Shown: positions 1,040 through 16,739 of the stretch, in pieces
Layout: the number at the start of each line of letters is the position of its first letter
Position numbering within the stretch: the first letter of the stretch is position 1
NCBI GenBank assembly: GCA_036253495.1
Contig: GCA_036253495.1_4125.1
DNA length: 64,000 bases
Source of the DNA: a phage
Reading direction: 5' to 3' (one strand)
Position numbers and translations under genes: made by a program
The notes under the pieces: generated by a model
The model's input: only the letters and a program-made list of their open reading frames with translations
Told to the model about the DNA's origin: nothing
The model's database searches: none

Positions 1040-2167
1040 ATGTCCGAGAAAGAAATCAATCCAAAAAAAGCAACTACCAAAACTTCTAAGCGTACTACGA
1101 CCAAAACCAAAGGTAATACTTTTGATGCGAGTGATATTTTCGACCAACAGTCTAAGACGTTACCAGTACTGAAAGATACAAAAGGTAACACTATGTCTTT
1201 AACTGTTCAGAACATTAACACCATTGGAACAACTGCTGGTGCAGGTGTCGGACGACTGGCTGATGAAATCATGTCAAAAGTGAACGTCACTGATGACAAT
1301 ACTGAATTTGGTAAATCAATTACCACAATTTTATCACTAACCCGTGCTGTTGATATTGACAGTCTACAAGATGATAAATCAATTGTAGGTTGGGTCAAAA
1401 AACTCTTTGTCAATGCAAAACAGAAAGTTGGTGATCAGTACAAGAATAGTAAAGAGCAGATTGATGAAATCATGAACACACTCCAGGTTGGTATCAATCG
1501 CCAACATAGTGAATGTGAGTGGTTGGATACTGCTTACAATGAGAATAAAGCCTATCTATTTGAATTACGCGATACGCTGGTTGAATTGGAACAAGTTACA
1601 AAAACTCAAGATGCTAAACTGGAAGAAATGCAAGCGAACCCTGATGTGGATTCTTTCGCAATCCAAGAGCAGAAGATGATTTGTGAAGCATTGTCTAAAC
1701 AGGAAGATAAGATTCGCCGTCTTATCATGATGTGTGAGCTTAGTGGCCCTCGTCTGATGAGTATGAAGAAAGTGAATCTAAACACTGTATCTAAATTTGA
1801 AGATCTGAAATCTGTTGTCATCCCTGCATGGAAATCACAACTAGCAGAACAATTGATTTCTGAACGCCAACGCAAAGATAATGAGTTGGGTAATTTGATT
1901 GATAATGAAACTAACCGTTTACTTGAAGTGAACTCCAAAATGGTAGCAACTAATATGTTAGATGCTGCTAAAGCTAATAACCGTGGTATTGTGGATATTA
2001 AAACATTGCGTAACGTACACAAAACAATGATCGATAGCATCGAAGCAGTACTGATTGAAGAGAAGAAAGGTAAGGAAGAACGTGAACGTGCTAAACATGA
2101 AATTGCACAGTTGTCCTACGAACTTGAAGAAACTCTTCGCGAAATTGCTGACAAAGCTAACAAGTAA
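1040..2167 (+). CDS. hypothetical protein, K/T-rich N-terminus, helical/coiled-coil rich
   Basis: GAGGAA RBS 8 nt upstream of ATG 1040; long ORF; function not recognised (TelA-like only a weak guess). Confidence 0.6.
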   Translation: MSEKEINPKKATTKTSKRTTTKTKGNTFDASDIFDQQSKTLPVLKDTKGNTMSLTVQNINTIGTTAGAGVGRLADEIMSKVNVTDDNTEFGKSITTILSLTRAVDIDSLQDDKSIVGWVKKLFVNAKQKVGDQYKNSKEQIDEIMNTLQVGINRQHSECEWLDTAYNENKAYLFELRDTLVELEQVTKTQDAKLEEMQANPDVDSFAIQEQKMICEALSKQEDKIRRLIMMCELSGPRLMSMKKVNLNTVSKFEDLKSVVIPAWKSQLAEQLISERQRKDNELGNLIDNETNRLLEVNSKMVATNMLDAAKANNRGIVDIKTLRNVHKTMIDSIEAVLIEEKKGKEERERAKHEIAQLSYELEETLREIADKANK

Positions 2168-2170
2168 TAG

Positions 2171-2199
2171 TTGACATATAGATGTGCCCATTGTATAAT
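2171..2199 (+). promoter_or_regulatory. sigma70-type promoter with 9-bp perfect inverted repeat embracing the -10
   Basis: TTGACA 2171-2176, TATAAT 2194-2199; inverted repeat ATGTGCCCA 2182-2190 / TGGGCACAT 2199-2207. Confidence 0.6.
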
Positions 2200-2232
2200 G
2201 GGCACATATTTTATTAATTATCTAAGGATAAT

Positions 2233-2934
2233 ATGATGGCAGATAAAGTTACACACTATGCAGTTGATATTGAATCTTTCGGAACTCCAGAACGTAGTGG
2301 TTATGATATTATCATTCCAAATTACGCAATTGTTTTAGTTCCAACTAACCCAATGAAAGATATCTCACGTTATGCATATGTTAAACTACCATTCCAAAAA
2401 CAAATTGATGCTGGTCTTAAAGTTGATGCAGGTTCAATGAACTTTTGGATGAATATGTGTCAAAATGATCATAAAGGTGCATATGAAGAAGTAGTTAGTA
2501 CACTCACGTTGTCAGAACCTGAGATTATTTCCGGTAGTCAAAACAATTTGTATAAAACAAAAAATGTACTTGATTTGTGGAATGCACTTCGTTATGATCT
2601 TAATGGAAATGAGAACAATATTGAAATTTGGGGTAATGGCTGTCACTTCGATTGTAGTATTCTTCAAGCAAACCATCGTAAAATGTTTGGTGTGGGCGAA
2701 TTGTGGAAATACAATGCACCACAGAATGCCCGAAGTGTTAAGAATCGCCTAACTGAAGATGAAAAATTTGACATGGATTCCATTGTTGATGTACAATTGA
2801 AAAAGTTTGTGGAGATGGTTGCTGATCATGGTCTTTATGGTCTAGAACTTCACCACCCATTATTCGATGCAGCACGTGAAGCTATCCAGGTTTCATATTG
2901 CTTAAATGCAATCAACGAACGCGGAAACTATTAA
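2233..2934 (+). CDS. DEDDh-type 3'-5' exonuclease (DnaQ-like; comparable to T4 DexA)
   Basis: Exo motifs: D-x-E in YAVDIES, FD in GNGCHFDCS, H-x4-D in HHPLFDAA; 233 aa. Confidence 0.7.
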   Translation: MMADKVTHYAVDIESFGTPERSGYDIIIPNYAIVLVPTNPMKDISRYAYVKLPFQKQIDAGLKVDAGSMNFWMNMCQNDHKGAYEEVVSTLTLSEPEIISGSQNNLYKTKNVLDLWNALRYDLNGNENNIEIWGNGCHFDCSILQANHRKMFGVGELWKYNAPQNARSVKNRLTEDEKFDMDSIVDVQLKKFVEMVADHGLYGLELHHPLFDAAREAIQVSYCLNAINERGNY

Positions 2935-2944
2935 AGGTAACACA

Positions 2945-4042
2945 ATGAACTTAGCAATTCTTCTAATACCAAGTTTGATAGTTGTTCTAATCATGAAGTT
3001 CAAATACCATACTGCCATAACAACAAAGGAATTGCTAATTCATACTGGAATTTGCTTTCTTGCAGCGGTGTTGGTATTGGGAACATCATACTTGATAAAC
3101 TACAGCCAACTTCGTGATGTTGAAATTCTAAATGGTCAGGTTACAGAGAAATACAGCCAACGTGAGAACTGCACATCACAATCAAGTTCTTGTAAACACT
3201 ATACTTGGCATGAGCGTTGCTGGACTACCTATGATTCTAAAGGTCGCTCACAACGTGAATGTGAATCTTATAAGGTATTCGACTATCCGTATGAGATTGA
3301 TTGGTACGTTAAAAGCACTGTTGGTAAGTTTGAGATTGAAAGGGTCAATAGACAAGGAACACAAACTCCACCACGCTGGCAAGAAGTGAAAATTGGTGAT
3401 TATGCAGCAGCAGAAAACACATACATAAATTATCTATTTGCAGATAAACACTCATTATTCAGTACTGAAGATTTGATTTCTATGTATGATAAAGAATATC
3501 TGGAATCTTTACCTGAATATCCAAGTATTAGTGATTATTATAAAACACACCACGTTATTAATAAAACTGATTACGATGTGAGTGGGTATGATGAATATTT
3601 ACGTGAAGTGTTAAAAACATTAGGTGCACAAAAGCAAGTAAACATTCAAGTACTAGTATATGATTATCATGACGTGAATTTTGTTGATGCAGTAACCTCA
3701 ATCTGGCGTGGTGGCAAGAAGAACGATGTTATTATGTTCTTTGGTATCAGTAATGATGGTGTCGTTAAATCATTCAATAGTACGTCATTCGCTAAAGGTA
3801 TGAATAATGAAGAATTGCATTCTAAAATGCGAATGGATGCGTTAAATGAAGTATTAACACTTGACTTACTTAAAGTTCAGGTTCATAATATACAGACTAA
3901 GTTTGAACGTCTGTCTAATAAAGAGTTTGAATACATGGCAGTTAAAATGGAACCACGAAAAGATGTTATGATTGCTGCATCGTTGATTCTCATTGTACTG
4001 TCGATTGTTGTTGGTCTTTATATGAAGGAAAATAATGTATGA
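2945..4042 (+). CDS. membrane protein (hydrophobic helices at both termini)
   Basis: ORF from ATG 2945 with AAAGG RBS; N- and C-terminal hydrophobic segments. Confidence 0.55.
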   Translation: MNLAILLIPSLIVVLIMKFKYHTAITTKELLIHTGICFLAAVLVLGTSYLINYSQLRDVEILNGQVTEKYSQRENCTSQSSSCKHYTWHERCWTTYDSKGRSQRECESYKVFDYPYEIDWYVKSTVGKFEIERVNRQGTQTPPRWQEVKIGDYAAAENTYINYLFADKHSLFSTEDLISMYDKEYLESLPEYPSISDYYKTHHVINKTDYDVSGYDEYLREVLKTLGAQKQVNIQVLVYDYHDVNFVDAVTSIWRGGKKNDVIMFFGISNDGVVKSFNSTSFAKGMNNEELHSKMRMDALNEVLTLDLLKVQVHNIQTKFERLSNKEFEYMAVKMEPRKDVMIAASLILIVLSIVVGLYMKENNV

Positions 4043-11327: not shown

Positions 11328-11701
11328 ATGAATTGGATAGAAAAATTGATGCTTTGTATAAATCAATTGAAACCAATGAGGTTACTGTATATTATGGGAG
11401 ACAGAGTGTACAACAATCAAATTCATGTTTACGTTTAACCATAACCTTAGATTCAAGAGATAATCCATATACTTGTGTTTTCAAAGAAAGAAACACCATT
11501 GAATGGATTGGTTGGTATATAGATGACCGTCTTTCATACCTTTATGATTTTGAAAATTATGATAGTTCAGAAGTTTACTTGAATTCAACTGAAGAAGAAT
11601 TATTTCAACTATCATTAATTGAAAAACATGTAATGTCATATGACAATTTACAAAAAATCAAGTCAATAATGAATTATGCTCTATCTAAGGTAAAGCAATG
11701 A
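11321..11701 (+). CDS. FQ-motif paralog family protein
   Basis: C-terminal STEEELFQLSLIEKHVMSYDNL module. Confidence 0.6.
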   Translation: MVDELDRKIDALYKSIETNEVTVYYGRQSVQQSNSCLRLTITLDSRDNPYTCVFKERNTIEWIGWYIDDRLSYLYDFENYDSSEVYLNSTEEELFQLSLIEKHVMSYDNLQKIKSIMNYALSKVKQ

Positions 11702-12138
11702 ACATTAAATTAGTTAAAAAATATATCAGTACTTTTAATAAAATTAAATTTATCAACGATGGTTTGACTGATCCTGAAGAACAAATTAAAAATACCACAT
11801 ACGTAGGTCAGAATTGCTTTAAGATTATTATTGAAAATAATGTATTATCATTATCAGTTAATAATCTGGTATATGGTGATCAGATGTATATCGTGCACAA
11901 TGTTAATAACAATAACTTAGAAATTATGCTTCGTGATGATAATGTTATCAAAATATATCAGGTACAAAATGTAAGTGAATGCACTACTGAAGAGGGGTAT
12001 TTCCAGGAATCACTGGTTCAAACATTTAATATTGATTTCAAGGATTTAAAATATCTCATGAGTACGCTAACAAAAATGCGTTCAGCTATCTTTAACATCT
12101 TTTTTATTGATGAACAGCGACAAATGGATGTAAAATGA
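11698..12138 (+). CDS. FQ-motif paralog family protein
   Basis: ATGA overlap; C-terminal TTEEGYFQESLVQTFNIDFKDL module. Confidence 0.6.
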   Translation: MNIKLVKKYISTFNKIKFINDGLTDPEEQIKNTTYVGQNCFKIIIENNVLSLSVNNLVYGDQMYIVHNVNNNNLEIMLRDDNVIKIYQVQNVSECTTEEGYFQESLVQTFNIDFKDLKYLMSTLTKMRSAIFNIFFIDEQRQMDVK

Positions 12139-12557
12139 ACCCAAGAGATTGTTTTGATTTGTTAAAGGGAATGCCTATAGATTCACTAGTACCTGATAAT
12201 AGGTTTGAGCACAATCTTGATTTTCATGGTGAAAATTACAATGTATATATAAGCTACAGTGATGATGAGAGTGAAGAACTAACATTTGTGTTCATTTATA
12301 ATGTTTTTGAAGGTGATAAGTTGTTGGATGTTGAAATTGCATCATATACTGTCACAAATCAATACGTTATCGAAGATGATCTTCGAAACAAATTTGATAT
12401 AACACTGTACAGTACTGAAGAAGAGTTGTTTCAGTTAAGTACTATCAGTGATGTGTGCACAACTGTCGAAGAGTTAGCAGACGTTAAGAAAATCATTGAC
12501 ACTGTGTACAACAAGATATACAATACATTCCATATTGAGAAACAATTAAAAGGGTAA
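12135..12557 (+). CDS. FQ-motif paralog family protein
   Basis: ATGA overlap; C-terminal STEEELFQLSTISDV module. Confidence 0.6.
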   Translation: MNPRDCFDLLKGMPIDSLVPDNRFEHNLDFHGENYNVYISYSDDESEELTFVFIYNVFEGDKLLDVEIASYTVTNQYVIEDDLRNKFDITLYSTEEELFQLSTISDVCTTVEELADVKKIIDTVYNKIYNTFHIEKQLKG

Positions 12558-12561
12558 CAAA

Positions 12562-12822
12562 GTGACTACAGTTGTTCGTAAACGCCACATGATGAATATG
12601 GATGAATTCCGTACATTTGACAAATATCGCACTATGTTTCGTATGCTGACACAGGGGCGACCAATTGTCATTGTAACAGAAAATTACATGTCACCTGAAA
12701 TCATGTTTGGTAATTATGAAAAGGTTTTCATGTTGTATGTGAAGCGTGGATTGTTAACTATCAAGACCTTAGCAGAAGCAACTGATGAAGACATGGATGG
12801 TGATAACACATTCACTATGTGA
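12562..12822 (+). CDS. hypothetical protein
   Basis: GTG start 12562; start uncertain. Confidence 0.4.
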   Translation: MTTVVRKRHMMNMDEFRTFDKYRTMFRMLTQGRPIVIVTENYMSPEIMFGNYEKVFMLYVKRGLLTIKTLAEATDEDMDGDNTFTM

Positions 12823-12898
12823 GGAACTATGAGCGAAAAACCAAAAGAACCATTAGATCGTGATGATGATTACTACGACGAACGTTATGGTGATAAAG

Positions 12899-13150
12899 AT
12901 GAGTGAACATAATGCAGTACTAAAAAAGATTTTAAATGATTTGGGTAGTGAATTTGAAGTTTCAGACGAAGAATATGAATTTTGGAAAAAGGATTTTGAA
13001 CAACTGTCCGAGAGTGATAAAGTGTTCAATATGATTGGTGTTGTCAGTCAGTACTTACTCGGTGGTGGTCGTGCTAGTGCTTCAATCCTTGCATCGGCAA
13101 TCATCTGTACTGCCCGATGGTGTCAAGAAAAAAGTATTGACGCTTTCTAA
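12899..13150 (+). CDS. hypothetical protein
   Basis: ATG 12899; start uncertain. Confidence 0.4.
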   Translation: MSEHNAVLKKILNDLGSEFEVSDEEYEFWKKDFEQLSESDKVFNMIGVVSQYLLGGGRASASILASAIICTARWCQEKSIDAF

Positions 13151-13208: not shown

Positions 13209-13237
13209 TTGACAATGGAGCAATAATATTATACAAT
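13209..13237 (+). promoter_or_regulatory. sigma70-type promoter (TTGACA-17-TACAAT)
   Basis: TTGACA 13209-13214, TACAAT 13232-13237. Confidence 0.5.
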
Positions 13238-13388
13238 TAATCAATCTTATACAACGAGGAAACTCCAATTGAAATATGTAATGCTCCTTATTCCAGTGGG
13301 GTCATTCCGTGAAATTCTACCTACTGATGTACTGGATGGTCTTAAAAAGAGAAATCCACATAAGTTTTAAATAGTATTAAAAAGGACA

Positions 13389-13420
13389 ATACTGGGCGAA
13401 TATTCGTCCAGTATTTTATT
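13389..13420 (+). terminator. long hairpin plus T-run upstream of methyltransferase gene (terminator or attenuator)
   Basis: About 13-bp stem ATACTGGGCGAATA / TATTCGTCCAGTAT followed by T-rich tract. Confidence 0.5.
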
Positions 13421-13436
13421 TTATAAAGGATTATAG

Positions 13437-15335
13437 ATGGAACCGATACGTGTACTATCACTATTCAATGGGATGAGTGTTGGGTATATGGCCTTGCAAA
13501 GTGCAGGAATACCAGTTGAAAAGTACTACTCATCTGAAATTGATAAATTTGCTATAGCTGAATCCCAGGCTAACTTTCCTGATATCATCCAATTGGGTGA
13601 TGTAACTAGATGGAAAGAATGGGATATCGAATGGGACAAGATAGATCTTCTGATGGGTGGTTTTCCTTGCTTCCCAGCAGGAACCATGATCATGACAAAT
13701 GAAGGTCATAAAGATATAAAAGATATAAAAATTGGTGATATGGTTCTTACACACACTGGACAATACCAAAAAGTATTGAGTATTGGTAGCAAGATTGCAC
13801 CAACAAGAATCATCACAGGTCAGGGACATATACCAATTGAATGCACTGATAATCATCCATTTTATGCGAGAAAAATGAGCAAGAAGTGGGATAATGAAAA
13901 ACGACAATATGTTCGTGAATATACAGAACCTACATGGATCGATGCACATGAACTCACAGAAGAACATGCTATATGTAATGTTCGTTGTAATGTGAATTTT
14001 CAACATAACAAGAGTGAAAGCTTTTGGTATTTCATGGGTAGATTTATGGGTGATGGATGGACTTACAAAGTAAAACGACAAAATAGAAAAAATAGTTATC
14101 AATATCGTGTTTTTATTTGCTGTGCTCATGATGAATTTGATGAATTGGTTTCATGTTTTGATGGTATGAATATGAAATATAATTTTGTTAAAGAAAGAAC
14201 ATCTTATAAATTCTATATTTGTTCAAAAGAACTAGTTGAATTTTGTGAACAAATGGGTAAGGGTGCTTCAAATAAACAAGTACACCCCACACTTTTCACT
14301 GAAAGTATCGCTAATCAGAAAGCATTCATTGATGGTTATTTTGACGCAGATGGTCACCATGACAAGAAAGATGATTGTTTAAAATTTACATCAACATCAA
14401 AGAATGTTATTCTTGGTATACAACAACTAATTATGAATGTGTATGGTCGTCATTCTAACATAACATACTTTAAACCGTCTGAAACAAAAGTTATAGAAGA
14501 ACGTGTTGTTAATCAGAAGCCGTATTACGTATTAACATACAAAAAAGAAAAGCACCGAAAAGATGAAGCATTCTATGATGATGGGTCATATTCATGGGTA
14601 AAAGGTGTTAAATCGAACACCACAACCGGAGAATGGAAAACCGTTTACAATATTGAAGTTGCAGTAGATAACACATATACGGCGAACAATATTGTAGTTC
14701 ATAACTGCCAAGCGTGGTCAGTTGCTGGGAAACAAGGCGGTGTGAATGATCCTCGTGGTATGTTATTCCATACAATGGTTGATATTTACCAGCACATAAA
14801 AAGTCTCAATCCTAACTTGAAAGTTCTTTTTGAGAATGTTAAGATGAAGGAAGATTTCAAGGATTATATCAATGGCGTGTTGGAAATGACACCAATTTTG
14901 ATAAACTCCCAGCATTACACGCCTCACTTCAGGCAACGTTACTACTGGTACAGTACTGATAAGTTATTCATACCACCTGCAATATCCAAAGCCCCAAAGC
15001 TTCAAGATATACTTGATGATGGTTGGTACACAGACAGAACCGCTTCGTACTGTATTGATGCCAATTACTTCAAGGGTGGAGATCCGAATCAGTACTTCAA
15101 TAAGTCAAGAAGACAAATCGTTTTCAAAGACCCTGATATCAACAGGAACTTCCTGATTGAGAAGGGTAAACGAAATGTGGACTATCGACATTTGACAGTG
15201 CAAGAGTGTTGCATTTTACAGGGAGTTGATGTAAACTATTTCAAAGTGTCAAGTAACACACAAGCGTACAAAATGCTTGGTAATGGCTGGACAGCACCTG
15301 TTATAGAACATTTACTTCGTGATATATTCTTTTAA
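13437..15335 (+). CDS. DNA (cytosine-5)-methyltransferase interrupted by an in-frame intein
   Basis: N-extein ends GGFP; C-extein starts CQAWSVAG (together motif IV GGFPCQ); downstream ENV (VLFENV), RQR and LGNGWTAPV motifs. Confidence 0.85.
   Translation: MEPIRVLSLFNGMSVGYMALQSAGIPVEKYYSSEIDKFAIAESQANFPDIIQLGDVTRWKEWDIEWDKIDLLMGGFPCFPAGTMIMTNEGHKDIKDIKIGDMVLTHTGQYQKVLSIGSKIAPTRIITGQGHIPIECTDNHPFYARKMSKKWDNEKRQYVREYTEPTWIDAHELTEEHAICNVRCNVNFQHNKSESFWYFMGRFMGDGWTYKVKRQNRKNSYQYRVFICCAHDEFDELVSCFDGMNMKYNFVKERTSYKFYICSKELVEFCEQMGKGASNKQVHPTLFTESIANQKAFIDGYFDADGHHDKKDDCLKFTSTSKNVILGIQQLIMNVYGRHSNITYFKPSETKVIEERVVNQKPYYVLTYKKEKHRKDEAFYDDGSYSWVKGVKSNTTTGEWKTVYNIEVAVDNTYTANNIVVHNCQAWSVAGKQGGVNDPRGMLFHTMVDIYQHIKSLNPNLKVLFENVKMKEDFKDYINGVLEMTPILINSQHYTPHFRQRYYWYSTDKLFIPPAISKAPKLQDILDDGWYTDRTASYCIDANYFKGGDPNQYFNKSRRQIVFKDPDINRNFLIEKGKRNVDYRHLTVQECCILQGVDVNYFKVSSNTQAYKMLGNGWTAPVIEHLLRDIFF
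13668..14705 (+). other. intein (346 aa) with LAGLIDADG homing-endonuclease domain, inserted before catalytic Cys of the methyltransferase
   Basis: Starts Cys (CFPAGTMIM), ends VVHN followed by +1 Cys; internal FMGRFMGDGW and FIDGYFDADGH dodecapeptide-like motifs. Confidence 0.75.
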
Positions 15336-15350
15336 CCATTAGAGGCACAA

Positions 15351-16735
<1,385 letters not shown>

Positions 16736-16739
<4 letters not shown>

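Follow-up and report, generated by a model that had tools for sequence, protein, structure and literature searches.

The methyltransferase gene and its insert

We analyzed a stretch of phage DNA of 64,000 nucleotides (nt) (contig GCA_036253495.1_4125.1), referred to as the window, in which a predicted C5-cytosine DNA methyltransferase gene appears to carry an intein. The open reading frame (ORF) of the putative precursor lies at 13437..15335 on the plus strand, as do all parts described in the following, and encodes 632 amino acids (aa) plus a stop codon. A first-pass annotation of the window had proposed this ORF together with a series of diagnostic motifs; the ORF is present as described and every one of the motifs was found in its place. 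The N-extein (aa 1-77, 13437..13667) contains methyltransferase motif I, FNGMSVG (13464..13484), and ends with the GGFP of motif IV (aa 74-77, 13656..13667). It was delimited by the Pfam DNA_methylase stretch 4-79, by matches to DNMT3A/B and M.HhaI and by alignment with intein-free orthologues. Directly behind it lies the candidate intein of 346 aa (13668..14705), which starts with Cys1 in CFPAGTMIM (aa 78-86, from 13668) and ends with VVHN of block G (aa 420-423, 14694..14705). This segment is missing in 46 orthologous records, matches Hint_2, LAGLIDADG_3 and Intein_splicing, and was further assigned with an AlphaFold2 (AF2) model and Foldseek. The C-extein (aa 424-632 plus stop, 14706..15335) begins with CQAWSVAG (aa 424-431), whose first residue, the +1 Cys424 (14706..14708), is the predicted catalytic Cys of motif IV. 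Further downstream it contains FENV with the ENV motif (aa 465-468, 14829..14840), RQR (aa 499-501, 14931..14939) and GNGW (aa 615-618, 15279..15290). Its assignment is based on the M.HhaI alignment, on invariant columns and on a match to the PHROG DNA methyltransferase.

The insert itself can be divided into three parts. The N-terminal splicing (Hint) part comprises approximately intein residues 1-105 (13668..13982) and holds block A with Cys1 as well as block B, TDNH (13845..13856); its boundary, read from the secondary structure that AF2 predicts, is approximate. The LAGLIDADG homing-endonuclease (HEN) domain follows at approximately intein residues 106-297 (13983..14558). It was recognized by the LAGLIDADG_3 match, the similarity to I-DmoI and the conserved D129 and D228, and it includes both LAGLIDADG motifs, FMGRFMGDG (aa 199-207, 14031..14057) and FIDGYFDADG (aa 297-306, 14325..14354). 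The C-terminal splicing part (14559..14705) comprises block F, VYNIEVAVDNTY (14643..14678), and block G.

In the Pfam search DNA_methylase (PF00145) matched with an E value of 3.6e-29 in three stretches that are split around residues 78-423. Hint_2 (6.4e-09, 36.8 bits vs a gathering cut-off of 28.4) and LAGLIDADG_3 (4.2e-08, 33.8 bits vs 22.5) passed their cut-offs, and Intein_splicing and Hom_end_hint gave weaker matches under theirs. NCBIfam returned the dcm superfamily along with weak matches to known intein-bearing proteins. TIGR00675 reached 95.9 bits, just short of its cut-off of 100.65, because the methyltransferase protein is split by the insert. The match of the predicted precursor to these motifs and domains is far beyond chance. 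Computed masses (precursor 73.7 kDa, spliced product 33.2 kDa, intein 40.5 kDa) agree with the values of about 73 and 33 kDa expected earlier.

A group I intron or a separate free-standing endonuclease gene was rejected as an explanation of the insert, since the ORF is one continuous frame with Hint ends and zero internal stops. The intein is more AT-rich than its surroundings, with a GC content of 32.9% (31.3% in the endonuclease core) compared to 39-40% in the exteins and a window average of 34.5%. When all stop-to-stop ORFs with 50 aa or more (406 in total) were scanned with a hidden Markov model of 42 family members, this ORF alone was matched, so that no second intein was detected in the window.

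Identification of the insert as an intein

With the conceptually spliced protein as tblastn query, 46 records with an uninterrupted methyltransferase of 285-297 aa were listed, among them those of the phages 121Q, PBECO4, slurp01, Turkey3/5, GAP32, CBB and RaK2. In Escherichia phages the orthologues without the insert are exactly 286 aa long, which equals 632 minus 346, and show an unbroken GGFP-CQAWSVAGKQ (here and below the hyphen marks the insertion site). The uninterrupted genes of Klebsiella phages read GGSP-CTDVS at the same junction. Moreover, the intein-free locus L010, which stems from a near-isogenic genome (assembly GCA_011911785.2) and spans 6,861 nt including the gene and 3 kb on each side, aligned without gaps to the window from which the intein had been deleted. 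The insertion site in intein-free alleles encodes GGFP-CQAWS, with ...GGTTTCCCA on the 5' side and TGCCAAGC... on the 3' side. In the comparison with intein-free homologues that the first-pass annotation had suggested, the insert is cleanly missing and the flanks are contiguous as motif IV.

All key residues of a class-1 intein are present, namely Cys1 (C78), T137 and H140 of block B, the terminal H422-N423 and the +1 C424. In intein numbering, C1, T60, H63, N346 and C+1 are each kept in 40-41 of the 42 aligned family members (N346 in 41). Of these members, 38 retain the LAGLIDADG aspartate D129 and 37 retain D228, and both are intact in the intein of the window. The model of the insert, computed with AF2 from the 42-sequence alignment, reached a predicted local distance difference test (pLDDT) value of 94.4 and a predicted template modelling (pTM) score of 0.91. 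Foldseek comparison of the whole model with the PDB retrieved the TliVMA intein (E 1e-17), PI-SceI, PI-PfuI and PI-PkoII, and the middle domain matched I-DmoI at an E value of about 1e-08.

The penultimate His345 is kept in only 18 of the 42 family members. Relatives with Phe or Tyr ahead of the terminal Asn retain the His of block F in 22 of 23 cases, and those without the block F His, including the intein of the window, retain the penultimate His in 11 of 12. This co-variation hints at a mutual compensation of the two residues in Asn cyclization.

The earlier proposal of a LAGLIDADG intein ahead of the catalytic Cys, whose splicing would rebuild GGFPCQ, is strongly backed by the 286-aa orthologues, the M.HhaI alignment, the invariant Pro-Cys and the structural model. 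We consider it highly probable (about 0.87) that the insert represents a class-1 intein with a LAGLIDADG homing endonuclease of the two-motif type, placed between the Pro of motif IV and the catalytic Cys of a DNMT3-like methyltransferase.

The host methyltransferase and its catalytic site

In a sequence search of the PDB, Cys424 aligned with residue 81 of M.HhaI, the known nucleophile Cys81. Once the insert is removed, the C5-methyltransferase motifs I, IV (PC), VI (ENV), VIII (RxR) and X (GN..) stand in order. Across 111 intein-free homologues P77, C78, E120, N121, V122, R153 and R155 (spliced numbering) are invariant, and Q79 is nearly so. An intein-free allele that is 93% identical to the spliced product (P0042) was modelled with a pLDDT of 93.6 as a complete and compact DNMT3-like catalytic domain, with matches to DNMT3A/3B at a template modelling score of 0.78 and an E value of 2e-23. 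The confidence of this model is low only in the loop following the catalytic Cys (pLDDT 56 at residues 81-90 and 78 at residues 91-100).

Among intein-bearing alleles the ratio of nonsynonymous to synonymous divergence (dN/dS) of the exteins ranges from 0.02 to 0.12, and therefore the methyltransferase is still under selection in these alleles. A precursor whose catalytic loop is interrupted by the insert would be expected to lack methyltransferase activity, and it is reasonable to assume that active enzyme arises only through splicing.

Homing footprint and co-conversion

The intein was found at this site in only five phage records (A4, JNE01, TH47, UE-S1 and ph0011), as opposed to the 46 uninterrupted ones. 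It occurs in three variants. Variant 1, with 346 aa, is shared by the window and A4 (100% identity), variant 2, in JNE01 and TH47, has 343 aa and about 76% identity to the intein of the window, and variant 3, in UE-S1 and ph0011 (2016-3896 in each locus), has 340 aa and about 53% identity overall. The splicing ends of variant 3 are about 85% identical to those of the window, which, together with its diverged HEN core (see below), suggests that the endonuclease module was exchanged or is fast-evolving inside a conserved splicing scaffold.

The stretch just 3' of the insertion site (..NDPRGMLFHTMVDIY..) is common to every intein-bearing allele, and the intein-free alleles all read ..DIRGQLFLVMV.IF.. 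there, regardless of the rest of the gene. Six amino-acid changes in the region of the catalytic loop always accompany the intein. These six differences (spliced residues 90-105) begin in the loop behind the catalytic Cys and extend into the next helix. The comparison of JNE01, which carries the intein, with Turkey5, which does not, revealed differences at 36 of 861 extein nt. Of these, 29 are located at nt 228-333, adjoining the junction at 231/232 (binomial p = 1e-20), and the differing codons comprise 21 synonymous and 6 nonsynonymous changes.

The near-isogenic intein-free genome allowed an even closer comparison. Its flanks of 3 kb on each side of the gene are 99.4% identical to those of the window, and all 66 differences within the gene fall at nt 24-424 of the spliced coding sequence with zero from 425 to the stop codon (p = 6e-55), so that none is more than about 200 nt away from the insertion site. 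The N-extein and intein of the window are 100% identical in nt to those of A4 and lie in the same genome context. Sites that distinguish A4 from L010 fall into two series in the window, with 66 consecutive matches to A4 (13460..14898) and then 80 consecutive matches to L010 (14906..15442), separated by a sharp breakpoint at 14898/14906. In the distal C-extein A4 differs from the window at 75 of 437 nt, and the window there equals the intein-free genome. The gene of the window is thus a chimera, in which a block of about 1.44 kb with the intein and adjacent extein sits in an otherwise L010-like gene. This co-conversion tract, the block that travels with the intein (13460..14898, plus strand), covers the intein together with up to ~210 nt of extein on its 5' side and ~190 nt on its 3' side.

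Within the C-extein, at 14937-15056 (precursor codons 501-540), A4 is only 64% identical in nt to the window, compared to 93-94% over the remaining C-extein. This 40-codon patch of A4 resembles the Klebsiella RaK2-type sequence and appears to be a second, separate recombination mosaic within the methyltransferase gene.

Synonymous divergence (dS) between JNE01 and TH47 is 0.16 in the HEN domain and 1.0-1.35 in the exteins. As the value of the HEN domain is far under that of the exteins, the intein is much younger than the alleles carrying it. The dN/dS of the HEN domain is about 0.1 in comparison with variant 2, and 0.11 for JNE01/TH47 at unsaturated dS. Selection instead of gene conversion as the main cause of the shared tract was rejected, because the differing codons in the tract are mostly synonymous (21 vs 6 and 31 vs 19). 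Patchiness, co-converted flanks and the young age of the element are classical signatures of homing with co-conversion, and the intein is probably mobile or recently mobile. This homing footprint goes beyond what the first-pass annotation had found.

Following the established intein pathway, the gene would be translated as the 73.7-kDa precursor, in which Cys78 (Cys1 of the intein) undergoes an N-S acyl shift and the N-extein is handed to the thiol of Cys424 (+1). Asn423 would then cyclize with the help of His422, which frees the 40.5-kDa intein, and an S-N shift would yield the 33.2-kDa enzyme with the restored catalytic loop GGFP-CQAWS. The freed intein, or the precursor, would cut intein-free alleles site-specifically in co-infecting related phages, and recombinational repair would copy the intein plus adjoining extein DNA. 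The mechanism is that of an element of the expected kind; it is not a new mechanism and the gain is incremental.

Relatives of the intein at the motif IV site

A word-index search with the intein alone retrieved 41 proteins, 36 of which carry PF00145. The corresponding search with the spliced methyltransferase yielded no intein-bearing proteins among its top 120 hits and is unusable for an estimate of occupancy. An exhaustive phmmer scan of 1.84 billion representative proteins resulted in 719 hits at E <= 1e-30. We examined the junctions in the best 149 of these hits, which are metagenomic representatives at 50% identity, and found a Pro-Cys N-junction in 140 of them and an HN-C(Q/T)xxS C-junction in most. 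Motif IV Pro-Cys of C5-methyltransferases hosts a large family of intein insertions that apparently was not previously described.

Cultured phages, too, carry an intein there: P1-like RCS47 (dmt), Mannheimia phage 587AP2, Erwinia jumbo phage Y3 and Lactobacillus phage Nyseid. A variant junction, SPD-C, was found in Pseudomonas phage Lana. These other motif IV inteins of C5-methyltransferases resemble that of the window in their junctions (xxP-CF..GT at the start and HN-C(Q/T)xxS at the end), with about 24-55% identity, but they reside in different methyltransferase subfamilies and hosts, and some are mini-inteins or have degenerate endonucleases. An intein annotation is missing from all examined records of this group.

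In the dmt gene of RCS47 (locus L012) the intein comprises 341 aa at 1501-2523 with the junction GGTP-C ... HN-CQAFS. The dmt intein is also present in vB_EcoM-Ro157c2YLVW and in one P1 record, and the records annotate Dmt only. In Mannheimia phage vB_MhS_587AP2 (locus L013, 964-2800) the frame of the motif IV intein stops about 20 codons past the HN-CQ junction, the annotation lists the C-extein as an overlapping coding sequence of its own, and an HNH homing endonuclease gene follows. This methyltransferase could be frameshifted or broken, or the stop could be a sequencing error.

P0003, a protein of 551 aa from a Logan assembly, is an Asteriusvirus-like methyltransferase with an intein of 264 aa at the same site, which has lost the first LAGLIDADG region. 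Two other methyltransferases, P0039 and P0040, carry mini-inteins of 149-153 aa. These three proteins seem to represent stages of the homing cycle in which the endonuclease is decaying.

Alternative explanations

Several points weigh against a splicing intein with an active homing endonuclease. Block F has Asn instead of the textbook Asp after VY (F:4), as do 39 of 42 relatives, and Asn again at F:13, where 29 of 42 relatives have His; this departure is probably offset by the penultimate His. The HEN core of variant 3 (UE-S1/ph0011) shows just 39% aa identity with a dN/dS of 0.66, and P0003 has lost part of its HEN, so that the lineage does undergo turnover or decay of the HEN. In several pairs dS is saturated, which makes those dN/dS values rough or unusable. 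Moreover, the footprints prove site-centred recombination, and neither a break by the endonuclease of this intein nor its present activity. Splicing, DNA cleavage and methylation are all inferred from the sequence.

It is conceivable, although unlikely, that the intein splices and its HEN is now inactive. The intein would then be a fixed or decaying passenger that is kept because precise loss is rare, and the mosaicism would result from ordinary phage recombination or past homing. The truncated intein of P0003, the mini-inteins of P0039 and P0040 and the diverged HEN core of UE-S1 fit such a course. However, both LAGLIDADG Asp residues are intact in the window, and the dN/dS of the HEN domain is low, both in comparison with variant 2 and for JNE01/TH47 at unsaturated dS. 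In addition, recombination is tightly site-centred in three independent backgrounds, and a very recent transfer is indicated by an intein that equals that of A4 in every nt and yet is embedded in a chimeric extein whose tract ends sharply.

That the insert does not splice at all we regard as extremely unlikely. In this case the methyltransferase would be inactivated, or the Hint-LAGLIDADG module would be permanently embedded as a nuclease or DNA-binding domain. Such an explanation draws on splicing being predicted from sequence alone, on the non-canonical block F, and on the GenBank annotation and the UE-S1 paper, both of which treat the orthologous products of 626-632 aa as plain methyltransferases. 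Yet the residues for all four splicing steps are present and conserved across the family, and both exteins are under strong purifying selection in intein-bearing alleles. The insert splits a catalytic Pro-Cys dipeptide that is invariant in 111 homologues. Methylation by a product left unspliced is hardly conceivable, and without methylation the selection seen here would lose its basis. Furthermore, diverse methyltransferases share this architecture, as it recurs in 140 of the 149 representative clusters nearest to the intein.

A further possibility is conditional splicing. Through the shared thiol chemistry, redox state or DNA binding could gate maturation, so that the intein would not be purely selfish but would switch phage DNA methylation at the post-translational level. 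The pair of Cys1 and +1 Cys is present and invariant, and the six changes in the catalytic loop always accompany the intein; substrate- or stress-responsive splicing was demonstrated for other inteins, according to one article (PMC5238726). We consider this very unlikely in the present case, as most sister phages lack the intein and thus do not need such a regulation, and the accompanying changes come with many synonymous ones, as expected of co-conversion and not of adaptation. A role of the intein beyond that of a parasite, either gating the maturation of the methyltransferase (e.g. by redox or DNA) or diversifying catalytic-loop alleles via a swap of ~100-200 nt per homing event, is suggested by the +1 residue, which is both the nucleophile of the splice junction and the catalytic thiol of the methyltransferase; this, too, seems highly improbable. 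If true, it would affect how jumbo phages cope with host restriction, including 5-methylcytosine-dependent nucleases such as McrBC.

We therefore favour a mobile or recently mobile class-1 intein in a functional methyltransferase. The "DNA cytosine methyltransferases" of 626-632 aa in A4, UE-S1 and ph0011 are intein-bearing precursors, as are the product of JNE01 that is filed as a "hypothetical protein" and that of the TH47 gene, which lacks an annotation. The intein is unnamed in the examined records of these five phages, and the UE-S1 genome paper mentions a methyltransferase only. The window, phage A4 and the intein-free genome are near-isogenic and jointly reveal a sharply bounded co-conversion tract, which constitutes a natural experiment. 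In crosses of culturable coliphages, the homing of the intein, the length of its tracts and its fitness cost could be quantified.

Comparison with known inteins

It is well established that phage nucleic-acid enzymes can harbour inteins at their catalytic residues. PI-SceI of yeast VMA1, TliVMA, PI-PfuI and PI-PkoII resemble the intein of the window in having a two-motif LAGLIDADG endonuclease nested in a Hint domain. They also share Cys1, the C-terminal His-Asn, the +1 Cys and a conserved catalytic insertion site. Their structures match the predicted fold with E values of 1e-17 to 3e-09, although the sequence identity is only 10-18%. The intein of the window, whose own activity is predicted, is smaller, with 346 aa compared to about 430-540 aa, and its host is a DNA C5-methyltransferase instead of a V-ATPase, ribonucleotide reductase or polymerase.

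Closer in function are the inteins of phage methylases. Kelley et al. (2016) described the mycobacteriophage inteins DNMT-1/2, which sit in enzymes of the N6_N4_Mtase family, and no other methylase inteins are listed there (PMC5050341). Moreover, an actinophage methylase intein was described by Gosselin et al. (2023), whose text never mentions cytosine, adenine or N6_N4 (PMC9957025). Similar to the intein of the window, these are LAGLIDADG-type inteins in orphan phage DNA methyltransferases, and they show a patchy distribution and signs of horizontal transfer with within-gene recombination (PMC5050341, PMC9957025). The intein of the window is approximately 26% identical to inteins in mycobacteriophage genes annotated as DNA methylase. 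In contrast to DNMT-1/2, it is located in a C5-cytosine host of the PF00145 family, at the Pro-Cys site of motif IV and in a jumbo coliphage. The gene A4_120 of phage A4 (USL83787.1) contains the same N-extein and intein and is annotated only as DNA-cytosine-methyltransferase. In the full-text literature we found no description of an intein in a C5-methyltransferase, but most subscription journals and InBase were outside this search and a prior description is possible. Methylases are not mentioned in the main text of Novikova 2016.

Source phage and surrounding genes

The region of the window is 97% identical to Escherichia phage A4, a jumbo phage of the genus Asteriusvirus with a genome of ~355 kb, and the first 25 kb of the window are 98.8% identical to it. 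The remaining close matches are all Asteriusvirus or RaK2-like jumbo phages. The first-pass annotation had placed the gene in the setting of T-even phages with hydroxymethylcytosine (hmC), which does not agree with these results. Membership in a T4-like, hmC-containing group was rejected on the basis of the best matches, with no search for hmC-pathway genes in the window. The methyltransferase is a standard syntenic gene of Asteriusvirus and its RaK2-like relatives, and because of this its presence in the window hints at nothing unusual. Thus, the earlier suggestion of a different DNA-modification or anti-restriction strategy is not supported, given the 46 uninterrupted records from this group.

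Among the seven flanking ORFs tested (11698..13150 upstream and 15351..16739 downstream) there was no restriction enzyme, and only PHROGs of unknown function were matched. A restriction-modification system was rejected, since the restriction partner is missing from these ORFs, and the methyltransferase is regarded as an orphan because none of them encodes a cognate restriction endonuclease.

The gap of 286 nt 5' of the methyltransferase holds three features (13209-13437). A strong sigma-70-like site, TTGACA-17-TACAAT, is located at 13209..13237 and is followed by a possible ORF of ~33 codons at ~13270..13370. A hairpin resembling a terminator (12-bp stem, T-run) lies at 13388..13415, only ~20 nt ahead of the start codon of the methyltransferase.

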